A stretch of 64,000 bases of DNA from contig OX597839.1 in assembly GCA_951406725.2 (NCBI GenBank), positions 16,926,001 to 16,990,000 on the forward strand, written 5' to 3'. The notes beneath the pieces were generated by a model. That model saw only the letters and a program-made list of their open reading frames with translations. It ran no database searches and was not told where the DNA came from. The position numbers and the translations under genes are program-made. Shown in pieces: positions 17,025 to 63,430 of the stretch; position 1 is the stretch's first letter, and each line of letters opens with the position of its first letter. The stretch comes from Octopus vulgaris. Lineage: Eukaryota.

Positions 17025-17200
17025 TTTTATTTTTCATTCTCTCTCTATTCATTTCCTCTTATTCCTTTCTGTCAAAGAGCATAGGCTTGAAACATAAAAG
17101 ACTTTTCCATTTTCCCTGACTGTCAAACTAATACACTTGCTTGTTGTTCCTACACCTGTCTTTGTTTTTGTTTTTCTATTAAATTTGAACCATATATAAA
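17025..17200 (+). mobile_element. Short repeat family P1 (probable PLE pLTR end) with hammerhead-like motif at 17065-17100
   Basis: Five related copies in the window, most ending at or near TA-rich tracts. Confidence 0.7.
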
Positions 17201-17272
17201 TATTTCTATATATATATAAGAAAATAAAAATGGAAAATACGCACACTTACATGGTTATTGTATAATTTTTAA

Positions 17273-17309
17273 TGTATCGACCAGTTTCGCAATCGCTATT
17301 CATGATACA
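17273..17309 (-). ncRNA. Minimal hammerhead motif with A3-U8 core variant
   Basis: TGTATC-ATGAATA-GC-gatt-GC-GAAA-CTGG-TC-GATACA; perfect 6-bp stem I. Confidence 0.6.
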
Positions 17310-17394
17310 ATGTTTAATTTATATGAAAATATATTTTTCTTAAGAAGAAAATGGGTACATATTTTTTCTAATGAAATTCACGAGTGAATTATAT

Positions 17395-17595
17395 ATATAT
17401 AGGGAAAGTTTACGAAATAAACAAAAGACAAAGACAGGTGGTGTACAAAACAAACAGATGTATTAGTATTGCATTCAGGAATAGAAAAAATCTTTTATGT
17501 TTCGAGCTTACGCTCTTCTACAGAAAGGGACACAGAAAAAACAAGGAGAGAAACAAGGAGAGAAAAAAAATGTGTGTAGTGGCTAACGATCTATC

Positions 17596-17598
<3 letters not shown>
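17395..17598 (-). mobile_element. Family P1 copy with hammerhead-like motif at 17492-17527
   Basis: CTTT-CTGTAGA-A-GAGC-gtaa-GCTC-GAAA-CA-TA-AAAG; (TA)n on both sides. Confidence 0.75.
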
Positions 17599-17636
<38 letters not shown>

Positions 17637-18834
17637 TCAGTCCAACCCATGCCAGCAGAGACACGGACATTAAATGATAATGATGAAGAGCCTGAGGATA
17701 ATGATTGCTCTGACTCAATGAAAGCCTTGTGAAAAGATGCAGTCGATGGAAACCAAAAGAGTATATGTGTAGGAAATAAGAAACACCTGACTTCAGAAAC
17801 AGATAAGGGTTAGCAGCAGAAGAGGCACCTGGCCATTAAACAACACCTCAGTGTCATATTCATGTAAACCAGCAAATAAGGGAACCTTCAAGGAGATACT
17901 TGACCTTATAGAAATAGCAGTGAAATACTTCCTTGAAATCCAGCATGAACTTTTTTAAAAAAAGATAATTGAGGAACACTTTGGATTATGTAGTCTTAGA
18001 TATACGAGTGACGGGATGTTCTCAGCTGAGGCTAATGTAAGGTTAAGTAACAACAAATTACGTGTCATGAAAACACTCGTAAATTACAGTGTCCTCCTTC
18101 CACCTGCAGCTATTGTGATGTTCTTGTAAATTAACCCCTAACACTCTTGCATAGACACAGGCAGACAGACAAAGAGACAGAAACACCCCCTCCACACACA
18201 CACACGCGCATGCACAGGCAGAGAGGCAGACACCTCCTCCACACACACAGATTGAGAGACAGACACACACACATACAGATTGAGAAATACACACTGATAC
18301 ACACACACACATACACACAGATATAGATACACACTGATATACACATGCATATACATTCAGACAACACACAAACCAATAAATACACAAACTGTCAGACACA
18401 TACACACCCACATATATAGATCCACACACACGCACACACACACACAGAAACACACACATGCACGTACATGCTCACCCCACACAGGACCTATTTTGAAGCA
18501 CGATAGACTGAACTATTTGAGGTTTTTAGATGATTATGAACGCAATTTTTAGCTGTCAATTTCGATATTAAATCATTGATACACAATCCAGCTATCATCC
18601 TGGGTCACCTTTGGCCTTTCTTAGAGTATAAACTCCCTGTAAGGGAAGGAGAGGGCCACAAAAGTTCACAAGCAGAGCCATAATATTCGAAAATTCATTC
18701 AAGTCAACAAAAATAATTGAATTAAACTAGTTTTTAGTTTTTGGGCCAGTCAAAGAGAATCTCGTGTTTTTTTTTGAATTAGTCTCAAATTATTGCAGCT
18801 AATGATGCACATCAAAATATTTGTGGCTTGTGGC

Positions 18835-19105
18835 TTCCTTCCTTTCTTTTTTGTCTCTTTCCTTCTTTCTTTTCCTGCTTTTATCTTTCTTCTTTTCTTT
18901 TTTGCTTTTTCTTTCTTTCTTCCTTTCTTTCTTTGTCTCTTTCTTTCTTTTTTTCCTTTCTGTGTCTCTTTCTTTCTTCCTTTCTTTCTCTTTTTCTTTC
19001 TTTCTTTCTTTCTCTCTCTCTTTCTTTCTCTTTTCTTTCTTTCTCTTTTTTCTCTTTTCTTTCTTTTCTTCCTTTCTGTGTTTTCTTTCTTTCTTTCTTT
19101 CTTTT
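18835..19105. repeat. Degenerate (CTTT)n polypyrimidine tract
   Basis: Direct reading. Confidence 0.95.
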
Positions 19106-19129
19106 GTTCACTTTTATACTTTTACACTT

Positions 19130-19975
19130 TTACTTGTTTCAGTCATTTTGACTGTAGCCATGCTGGAGCACCACCTTTTAGTCTAAGAAATCGAACCCTG
19201 GACTTATTCTTTGTAAGCCTGGTACTTATTCTATCAGTCTCCTTTGCCAAACTGCTAAGTTACGGGGACATAAACACATCAAGATCTGTTGTCAAGTGAT
19301 GGTGGAGGGGCAAACACAAGCACACACAGCACACACACACACACATATACATATATCATCATCATCGTTTAACATCCGCTTTCCATGCTAGCATGGGTTG
19401 GACAATTTTGACTGAGGGCTGGCGAACCAGATGGCTGCACCAGGCTCCAATCTTGATCTGGCAGAGTTTCTACAGCTGGATGCCCTTCCTAACACCAACC
19501 ACTCCGAGAGTGTAGTGGATGCTTTTTACGTGCCACCAGCATGGGGGCCAGTCAGGCAGTACTGGCAATCACCTTGCTCAAATCTTTTTACACATGCCAC
19601 CGGCACAGGTACCAGTAAGGCGATGCTGGTAACAATCACGCTTGAATGGTGCCCTTTTATGTGCCATATATATATATATATGTATATATCTGACAGGCTT
19701 CTTTCAGTTTCTGTCTACCAAATCCACTTATATATATACACATATGTGTGTGTGTGTGCATATATTTGTGTTTCTGTGTTTGTCCCCACAATATCACTTG
19801 ACAACTGATGCTGGTGTGTTTACATCCCCATAACTTAGCAGTTCAGCAAAAGAGACTGGTAGGATAAGTACTAGGCTTACAAAGAATAAGTCCTGGGGTT
19901 GATTTGCTCAACTAAATGCAGTGCTCCAGCATTGCCACAGTCAAATGATTGAAACAAGTAAAAGTGTAAAAGAAT
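19130..19975. mobile_element. SINE cluster: family A (-) interrupted by family C (-, 19355-19666), followed by a family A tail (+)
   Basis: Homology to 52483-52900 and 45181-45615. Confidence 0.85.

Positions 19976-60773: not shown

Positions 60774-60775
<2 letters not shown>
60380..60775 (-). mobile_element. SINE B dimer inserted in an (AAT)n tract
   Basis: Two family B units; junction matches 14890-14910. Confidence 0.9.
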
Positions 60776-60840
<65 letters not shown>

Positions 60841-61298
60841 CAATGACTATGATGATGAGGATAAAACTACAAAAGCATCAGAAAACCCAAGAACCAAACA
60901 AATTTCATAATTCTTATGGGTATCAATACTTCAAAATAATTTTAGTTTTCTGTATTTATTACTTTCATTTTATGTTGTTATTGCTGTTTTTTTCTAATGG
61001 TTGGTGTGTGTGTGACGGTGGTGGTGGTGGGAGGGCTTCTACCTCTTGTTTTGTCTTTTCAACAACAATTAAAGTTTTGGTTATATAATAATATGTTTTT
61101 GAAAATAGAAATTTATTGATTTGACAGAAAGAAAATACATAAAAAAAAAAAATCACCAACACCAACAACAACAGCAGCAGCAACTGTAACAATAATAACA
61201 ATAGAAAAATTTACAAAACTGGGCAAACTAGATAAGTTTTCAATAGAATTATTATTTCCCTGAAGTATATCGTGTGTGTGTGTGTATGTATGTGTACA

Positions 61299-61340
<42 letters not shown>

Positions 61341-61852
61341 CATATTTGTATATGTATGATATATATACACATATGTATGTATATGTATGATATATATATA
61401 CATATGTATGTGTGTATACATATGCATATATATATATATATATACACATATGTATATGCATTAATATATATATGTGTGTGTGTGTATATATATATATAAT
61501 ATATCTAGTATATATTTCATAAGGCTTTATGTTTATCACAATATCATCATTGTCGTCACCATCATCATCATTTTCCCCATCATCATCATCTCCTCATCAC
61601 CATCATCCTCATCATAGTTTTATAGTTTCCTATCAGCTTTGCATGATGGCATGATTGGTTGTGTTGTCAGGGTTAGCGGTCAGAAGTACCTCTCACCTAA
61701 ATGGGTCAAAGAAACCTCATTTCATTAATGTTTCATTTTAGGCTGGGCTTCTACGGTTGGATGTCCTTCCAAACGCCAACCTCTTTTCAGTGTGTTTTGA
61801 GTACCGTATTCATAGCACCAGCACTAGACATGTTGCTATGTCTTCAACTAGA

Positions 61853-62110
61853 CCAGTTGGTTCTCAACCAGGGTCCATGTGACCCTTGTTGGTCCATATA
61901 AGATTTTGTCATTAAAATTTATGCGATAAATTATTTATGCTTCTTCAATAGACAAAATGTTTTAACAATTTTTCAAATACAATTCCTAATAATATCTAAT
62001 TATAAAAATACAGTAGGATGTTTTTTCTACACATTGAGTGGCTATGGAGGTCCAGCGGATAAAGTAGAGATGAAAAGGATCCATAGGCAAAAAATGGTTG
62101 AGAACCACTG
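61853..62110. mobile_element. hAT-type MITE
   Basis: cag(t)tggttctcaacca ... tggttgagaaccactg; a second right end at 62948-62964. Confidence 0.8.
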
Positions 62111-62179
62111 CTTTAAAGAATTACAACCTTCACAACATAAGAAAAAATTGCTTATGCTTCTACAATACTCAAAATATCC

Positions 62180-62460
62180 TTTCCTTTTCTAGTCTAGGCA
62201 CAAGGCCTGATATTTTGGGGGAGGGGGCCAGTCAATTAGATCGACCCCAGTATGCAACTGGTACTTAATTCATTGACCCAAAAAGGATGAAAAGCAAAGC
62301 TGACCACAGGACAATTTGAACTCAGAACATAAAATGCCGGGAAAAATGCCGTTAAGCAAAGTTGACCTTGGCAGAATTTGAACACAGAATGTAAAGACAG
62401 ATGTAATACCGTTAAGCAGTTCACCTTGTGTGCTAATGTTTCTGCCAGCTTGCTGCCTTA
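62180..62460 (-). mobile_element. SINE B with internal duplication
   Basis: Family B homology; aatttgaac.cagaa segment duplicated. Confidence 0.85.
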
Positions 62461-63242
62461 CAATACCCAGAATATTATAACAGTTATTTTTATACAATTC
62501 CTAATAATATTTAATTATAAAAATACAAGATCTTTTTTTAATTCAATGGCTTTAGTAAAATAACTTGTCGTTATACAGCTGGTATTTGGAGCATAAATTA
62601 ACAAGAAATTTTGAAGAATGGTTTTAATTTAGATTACTTTAATTCCTATTGTTACCCTATTTCTGTTCCAATTAATTTTGAAAATAATGACATATTTAGT
62701 AAAAATAACTTGTCATTATTCAGCTGGTGTTTGGAGCATAAATTAGAATCAAATTTTGACGGAAGGTTTTTAGATCACTTTAACACTTTGGACACAATAT
62801 TTTTGTTGAATTACACTTCCTTTGTTTCAGTTAATTTTGAAAATAAAGAAGAATTTATCAATATAACCTACTTACCAATTCAGGTATTTATGTGGTCTTG
62901 TAACCCAGTAGAGTAAAATAGGAGCCAAAGGGGTACATAAGCAAAATATGGTTGAGAACCACTGAACTAAACTAATGGGTCACTCAACCTCATGCTTTTT
63001 AAGTTCACAAAGTGTGTTTTTCATGATACTAACAATAGTAATAGAAGCTAACTATGAGTGTTGTGAGCATGAACAAGTCAGAATAGTTTTAGAGGCTTCA
63101 TGTTTGAAGGATTAAAACAGAAATTCTAAAATGAGATTAGTTGATGTGTGAGTTTTGATATTCCTGGCAGGGACCTCTTCTTTAAAGAAATGCCACATGC
63201 CAAAATATGAGAAATAACCTCTCTTCCTGGCAACATAAACAT

Positions 63243-63430
63243 AATTATAGGGGGAGAATTCACGAAAAAAAAAACAAAAGACGAAGACAGATGGTGTAGA
63301 AAACAAACAGATGTATTAGTATAACACTTGGGAATTGAAAATGTCTTTTACATTTCGAGCCTACACTCTTCCACAGAAAGGAGCACAGAAAGAAACAAGG
63401 AGAGAGAAAAATGTGTGTAGTGGCGAATGC
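63243..63430 (-). mobile_element. Family P1 copy with hammerhead-like motif at 63345-63380
   Basis: CTTT-CTGTGGA-A-GAGT-gtag-GCTC-GAAA-TG-TA-AAAG. Confidence 0.75.

Follow-up and report, generated by a model that had tools for sequence, protein, structure and literature searches.

A putative hammerhead ribozyme with U at position 6 in Neptune-type Penelope-like elements of Octopus vulgaris

Hammerhead copies in the window

The stretch of Octopus vulgaris DNA analyzed here (assembly GCA_951406725.2, contig OX597839.1, positions 16,926,001 to 16,990,000; the whole 64,000 nt are called the window) carries five copies of a hammerhead ribozyme-like motif in which the A6 of the hammerhead core CUGANGA is mostly replaced by U (U6). 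All five copies given in a preliminary description of this DNA were located, at +17065-17100, -17527-17492, +32163-32198, +37838-37873 and -63380-63345 (signs denote the strand). As reported there, position 7 reads C, A, G, T and G across the five copies, position 6 is T in four of them with CTGATGA in the copy at 37838, and an extra A follows A9 in 5/5. In a chance test the window gave 2 matches at ≤3 mismatches vs. 0 in 100 shuffles.

Each motif sits in a repeat of ~200 nt that starts close to a CGCCATG-like motif and in most cases terminates in (TA)n. On sequence grounds, these repeats are old, dead solo copies of the pseudo-long terminal repeat (pLTR) from several subfamilies of a Neptune-type Penelope-like element. 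The consensus motif is intact in none of the five copies, every one being damaged, and the ACGT palindrome is lost by CpG decay in all of them; CA/TG in place of CG is ordinary decay of that palindrome, just as had been proposed. The first pLTR remnant (16992-17191, forward strand, old subfamily) contains the decayed hammerhead 17065-17100 (U6, C7, A17, damaged by G8A), with a stem I strand at 17065-17068, C3 at 17069 and a predicted cut at 17096/17097. The second (17402-17598, reverse strand, N7 = A subfamily) lies between (TA)n tracts, and its hammerhead (17527-17492) has U6, A7, a GTAA loop and a CpG-broken palindrome. The third (32096-32289, forward strand, N7 = G subfamily) ends in (TA)n; its hammerhead (32163-32198) combines U6 and G7 with G5A, a broken stem II and U16.1C. 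The fourth (37774-37963, forward strand, old subfamily) probably extends further upstream and holds the hammerhead 37838-37873 (A6, T7, damaged by G12A), while the fifth (63250-63435, reverse strand) has a short 5' internal deletion and the hammerhead 63380-63345 (U6, G7, A17, CpG-broken palindrome). The ends of all five remnants are approximate, those of the first having been placed by eye. The first two remnants, 73% alike and members of different subfamilies, are oriented tail to tail ~200 nt apart across an AT-rich interval (17191-17402) and are probably independent insertions.

The GTAA loop, previously described as a GNRA variant of the stem II loop, is a single-copy G>A change. Its site varies at <3% in contigs from public sequencing runs, on which ground a GNRA loop as a selected variant was rejected. 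The copy at 37838 is not a working canonical copy, because it groups with U6 relatives and carries G12A. Among its 28 nearest relatives, position 6 is U in 22, A in three, C in two and G in one. The A6 of this copy is likely a point reversion, and an old, small A6 subfamily probably exists too.

The element carrying the motif

Frames encoding a reverse transcriptase (RT) thumb and a GIY-YIG domain were found upstream of some motif copies, and a protein search of the genome yielded 150 scored matches among 9,177 candidates, several of them in open frames of >1,000 amino acids. In 20 genomic loci selected for long frames, a U6 hammerhead lies behind the open reading frame (ORF) in every case, with a second hammerhead 4.4-4.6 kb upstream in 10 of the 20. 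One such element (L170) has a unit of 4,478 nt and two pLTRs that are 99.84% alike over 1,269 nt; other copies are 99.3-99.6% alike. Stop-free frames span 1,119-1,200 amino acids. Against Pfam, the encoded protein matches RVT_1 above the cut-off (E 1.6e-7) and GIY-YIG below it (E 0.008); the YIGQT motif was read directly, and GIY-YIG is preceded by a C-X4-C-xx-C linker. Inverted partial copies were present at three loci (L172, L187, L008). The element thus has the make-up of an endonuclease-bearing (EN+) Penelope-like element, with a single ORF for RT plus GIY-YIG at the C-terminal end and with partial-tandem pLTRs that each contain a hammerhead.

A CX2-5CxxC linker with a C-terminal endonuclease is the mark of Neptune and Nematis, and Neptune features include microsatellite targeting (PMC8557442; here and below, citations refer to the parts of each paper that were available). 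The octopus element has both the linker, which is shared with Nematis, and the microsatellite targeting. A homologue search with the element protein gave unnamed proteins at 43-63% identity; the Neptune placement gains indirect support because the motif of the metagenome relatives is near-identical to that of the A. digitifera Neptune hammerhead. Judged from its sequence, the carrier is a young Penelope-like retrotransposon of Neptune type, with a ~4.5-kb unit encoding RT, a CxxC linker and GIY-YIG and with a U6 hammerhead in each pLTR. It is not a non-LTR retrozyme, a class in which non-coding units, each with one hammerhead, are repeated in tandem, since the copies are dispersed solo pLTRs or the ends of coding elements. 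The element ORF is covered by contigs from four runs that are guessed to be RNA, one of them with cDNA-adapter ends; these contigs do not display the ends of molecules. Young long-frame copies are clustered on one contig (C2:77.13-77.22 Mb and C2:55.3-62.8 Mb).

Fixation of U6 and variation at positions 7 and 17

Exact matches to the motif number 6,783 in the 2.8-Gb genome, vs. 0 for the reversed pattern, and rise to 23,448 with stem II and its loop freed; a profile search found 38 matches in 664 kb. A6 is present in 106 of the 6,783 exact matches. Hand counts over the first 100 of these gave T94, C5 and A1 at position 6 and A46, G25, T16 and C13 at position 7. Freeing C3, U4, G5, G8, A9 and the extra A raised the number of matches to 8,160 (+1,377), or ~2.8% per core position, which is the level of post-insertion decay.

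To avoid the circularity of motif-anchored sampling, we used a profile of the 3' part alone. This ribozyme-free sample contains 44 matches in 864 kb, 39 of which span the motif. In these 39 copies the counts were T35, A3 and C1 at position 6, T15, A8, C8 and G8 at position 7, and A27, T8, G2 and C1 (with one gap) at position 17. Ten core positions average 3% non-majority bases vs. 20% in 145 outside columns, a figure that takes in poorly aligned T-rich columns. In contig sets from four public runs (placed at 80% likeness, with figures that are depth sums and not copy counts), only position 7, position 17 and the CpG sites vary at ≥3% within the core; U6 does not. Eight subfamily consensus lines differ at 59 of 142 outside columns, and within the motif at positions 7 and 17 alone, setting aside position 6, which also differs because A6 copies were fetched on purpose.

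Positions 7 and 17 are the two free positions in hammerheads. As the motif changes between subfamilies only at these positions, the fold has remained under selection while carrying U6. A non-canonical U6 lineage, as first suggested, is borne out by the fixation of U6 and the existence of young intact elements. The preliminary description had named as one of the points that could undo it an N7 no more variable than the other core positions; N7 is clearly more variable than these, and by far, but it is not the sole free core position that it was said to be, as position 17 varies too.

The motif retains the hammerhead core positions C3, U4, G5, G8, A9, G12, A13, A14, A15.1, U16.1 and H17 (mostly A or U) and departs from that core at A6, with U6 in 35/39 ribozyme-free-sampled copies and in 20/20 long-ORF elements. 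It also has the features of the minimal type I hammerheads, namely an extra base after A9, G10.1-C11.1, a palindromic 15.2-16.2 and a short stem I, the register of which is backed by covarying stems (by eye) in other families of this genome. With GAAA-CG-U-H and no self-closing stem III, it is a minimal type I hammerhead that could close stem III only as a dimer, in agreement with the dimerization proposed earlier. Rfam covariance models gave no hammerhead match on an intact copy at E up to 10 and, on the window, no hammerhead among the 150 of 533 matches listed.

Comparison with known hammerheads

The published consensus of Penelope hammerheads is CUGANGAH...GAAAN-palindrome-NUH, and in the minimal type I hammerheads of pLTRs, which are weakly active as dimers, a base is conserved between 9 and 10.1 and 15.2-16.2 is palindromic (PMC4209133). 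By our own count of the motifs listed there, the extra base is present in 54/56 and A6 in 56/56. The extra A and the palindrome, initially regarded as unusual, are therefore both standard, and a viroid-like novelty of the extra A was rejected. The real oddity is U6; the dimer design, like the extra A and the palindrome, is already known for Penelope hammerheads. Families with U6 were probably invisible to the search in PMC4209133, for which the consensus core was CUGANGA.

The A. digitifera Neptune hammerhead (PMC4209133) likewise occurs in both pLTRs and has CUG-N-N-GA with the extra A, a short stem I, a 4-bp stem II ending in GCUC with a 4-nt loop, GAAA-CG-U-H without loop 3, and a predicted dimer. 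It differs in having A6, where U6 is fixed in the octopus, and in the sequences of stem I and loop II. The PAc Poseidon hammerhead of the green anole (PMC11167929) is similar with respect to uncut RNA as the main template, priming behind the pLTR, AT-rich targets and an occasional tail, but belongs to the Poseidon clade and overlaps the ORF start, whereas the octopus hammerhead is in a non-coding pLTR and has U6. The hammerhead of phage Bcep176 (PMC3088659) also has a natural change at position 6 (A6C), but it is a single example, has C rather than U and is not of the minimal dimer type. The octopus U6 lineage, by contrast, comprises tens of thousands of copies and is apparently active.

The (+) hammerhead of chrysanthemum chlorotic mottle viroid (CChMVd) carries an extra A after A9 and thus shares the extra nucleotide between 9 and 10.1. 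It had been chosen as the comparison for the extra A, for which it is not the right one: the base is general in Penelope hammerheads, and the viroid motif, which is monomeric with a canonical A6, is not the closest one to the octopus motif. In 2017, as summarized in PMC6765202, Lünse, Weinberg and Breaker reportedly described small Penelope-associated hammerhead variants that resemble the octopus motif in their diminished stem III and dimer cleavage. A fixed U6 hammerhead was not reported in the literature searched, with this 2017 survey, the most extensive one on variants of this type, which may contain one, lying outside the search. The words ‘ribozyme’ and ‘hammerhead’ are absent from the main text of the O. 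vulgaris repeat paper, and a PDB search gave no match.

A6 relatives and the direction of change

The genome also contains a sister family whose stem II is identical, whose loop II has 3 nt and whose pLTR is organized in a similar way. It gave 4,616 pattern matches, the first 100 of which include 97 with A6 and none with U6. Metagenome relatives have A6 in 76/76 and the same stem II (GAGC/GCUC) as the U6 lineage. Most of these 76 matches (L329-L404) differ very little from the Acropora Neptune hammerhead in the literature, and they are likely host DNA. A6 also predominates in the more distant hammerhead families of this genome, where U6, G6 and C6 are scattered. Several of them (L190-L219) have covarying stems II and I (GGAC/GTCC, GGTT/AACC, GGCT/AGCC); all have the extra A, as the search pattern demands, and a few single matches are U6 or G6. 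Among the oldest members of the U6 lineage, one group with common 5' markers is A6U7, most having been fetched for their A6, and A6U7 occurs in 3/39 ribozyme-free-sampled copies, all of them old. This distribution suggests that A6 is probably ancestral and that U6 arose early in this lineage. The endonuclease sequence of the sister family was sought in order to root U6 by a protein tree, and none was recovered.

The sister family (L405-L434) has a stem I of 3 bp, and 5 of its 30 loci carry G17 with common flanking marks, possibly a subfamily at odds with the NUH rule; standard assays show no cutting at GUG (PMC4191386). About 20 nt past the cut site, a conserved AGCG-T-Y-AAAC-TAATAC-like stretch is present in all subfamilies (17115-17135 in the window) and at loci L190, L197, L212, L213 and L217. 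It looks like a second CGU-H-AAA site, is kept in families whose stems differ, and could pair with the stem I strand in old subfamilies, a match that is lost in the young family. The downstream GAGCG was considered as a stem II switch and dropped, a similar AGCG stretch being kept in families with a different stem II.

Copy ends, template and targets

The cut site is spanned by 39/44 copies of the ribozyme-free sample, and 26/44 reach the common 5' start. Because most copies span the cut site and reach this start, the uncut-template pattern of the anole Penelope element fits the octopus genome. Among the 23 copies that carry the start motif, 13 have their 5' end within ~10 nt of a word resembling the initiator consensus. 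An AU-rich stretch follows the 5' pLTR. Of 120 ends, 90 lead into (TA)n, and a short tail was seen on one solo copy among 236 ends examined. A word resembling a branch point, with CAG, precedes the common 5' start of the young family (L170, oriented positions 2880-2915), and this start may alternatively be a splice acceptor of the kind known from Drosophila Penelope; the other subfamilies lack the AG.

Evidence for and against cleavage

Our preferred reading, to which we assign a probability of about 0.55, is that the U6 hammerhead of the intact elements is a putative slow ribozyme, assisted by dimer formation and by protein, that processes a minority of transcripts. The two hammerheads of one transcript, or of two RNAs, would pair through ACGU and exchange stem I strands, and cutting after GUA or GUU would be slow and confined to a minority of transcripts; the element's own protein would probably be needed for cutting, alongside the second copy. 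Most insertions, including the five in the window, would have been copied from uncut RNA starting at a pLTR promoter, and copying would be primed in the AU-rich stretch right behind the pLTR, at (TA)n targets. In the anole, the Penelope hammerhead needs the protein of its element in order to cut; the element uses mainly uncut RNA as template, begins copying within that RNA behind the pLTR, and inserts normally in vitro when its hammerhead is mutated (PMC11167929). A natural A6C hammerhead keeps low activity (k <0.1 per minute; PMC3088659).

Several results weigh against this reading. In folding predictions, the U6 monomer pairs U6 with A15.1, drawing G5 onto C15.2 (mean G5-C15.2 probability of 0.69 in 45 U6 motifs vs. 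0.12 in 22 A6 motifs), and for the four U6 motifs tested the active dimer lies 3-8 kcal/mol above two monomers. In a full mutational scan, CUGA mutations gave low activity, save for the C3-G8 swap (PMC9901934). No covariation of stem II or loop II was found within the U6 lineage, a constancy that fits sequence recognition equally. Copies starting at the cut site show no excess, being estimated at ~19 vs. ~58 at a control that is biased upward. With G17 in 5/30 sister-family loci, these motifs do not adhere strictly to catalytic rules, and the poorly aligned columns within the 20% outside figure soften the contrast with the core.

The search for a cut-site footprint returned 70 matches, with 8 of 30 inspected being truly truncated. 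The first control gave 20 matches, five truncated at the site, but excludes (TA)n junctions by design and hence is not comparable; the second gave 117 matches, 15/30 truncated, and is biased upward by 4 nt of TATA microhomology vs. 2. A6 motifs also collapse in the folding predictions (G5 paired at 0.87 in 38 metagenome motifs and 0.54 in the sister family), and the idea of U6 as a unique ‘safety catch’ is weakened by these other collapsed folds. Another candidate, 195 double-change stem II matches taken as covariation of the U6 lineage, was rejected; they are mostly other A6 families. It seems unlikely, though worth stating, that U6 defines a natural protein-gated core which has served this animal retrotransposon lineage throughout its recent history and is missed by CUGANGA-based searches, with more such families to find; U6 would then be predicted to be efficient only when the element protein and a partner copy open the monomer locked by U6-A15.1.

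Alternatively, U6 may have ended catalysis, with the hammerhead fold kept as a non-cutting structure that is recognized by the element protein or a host factor (in packaging, as a promoter or in translation). We regard this as the main rival, possible if on the doubtful side. It would be consistent with a stem II (GAGC/GCUC) that is identical in the U6 lineage, the sister family and the metagenome relatives, with the lack of effect of hammerhead mutants on anole Penelope insertion in vitro (PMC11167929), with the weakness of CUGA mutants (PMC9901934), with the 39/44 copies that span the cut site and with the tolerance of G17 in the sister family. However, the changes between subfamilies fall at the two known hammerhead-free positions; position 17 shifts among A, U and C in the U6 lineage, with G merely sporadic; G8, G12 and the C3-G8 pair are fixed; and in 2/44 ribozyme-free-sampled copies the 5' end lies at the cut site or 2 nt ahead of it, with none between positions 38-95 and three further down.

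We find it improbable that the U6 hammerhead is fully competent, with the 4-nt loop II, a longer stem I or the element protein offsetting the lost A6 contact. The U6 lineage is larger than its A6 sister (23,448 vs. 4,616 matches, to patterns that are not identical) and differs from it in loop II and stem I length; very young U6 copies exist, and young branches contain no subfamily-level reversion although A6 is one mutation away. Nevertheless, published position 6 variants are slow (PMC3088659), the folding predictions give a stable off-state, a tertiary contact was not identified, and copy number need not depend on cleavage (PMC11167929). Hardly credible is a dead relic carried neutrally, its constancy reflecting short time or exact-pattern sampling: many loci were indeed fetched by patterns that fix the motif and 5/5 window copies are broken, but this explanation is largely refuted by the samples not anchored on the motif, which give the same pattern, and by the eight subfamily lines, in which 59/142 outside columns differ and the motif only at 7 and 17.

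The cellular role of Penelope hammerheads has been called a mystery (PMC7761336). The octopus provides a natural pair within one genome, a young intact U6 element and an A6 sister family that shares its stem II. Cutting by U6 would mean that searches assume too strict a core consensus for hammerheads and that large families have gone unnoticed; otherwise, a conserved fold that does not cut is carried by a thriving Penelope lineage, which would imply a role other than catalysis. Either outcome would be informative, the remaining architecture being already known.

Elsewhere in the window, long GGT/CCA trinucleotide-type tracts with open low-complexity frames occupy positions 55900-57050 and 1-320.

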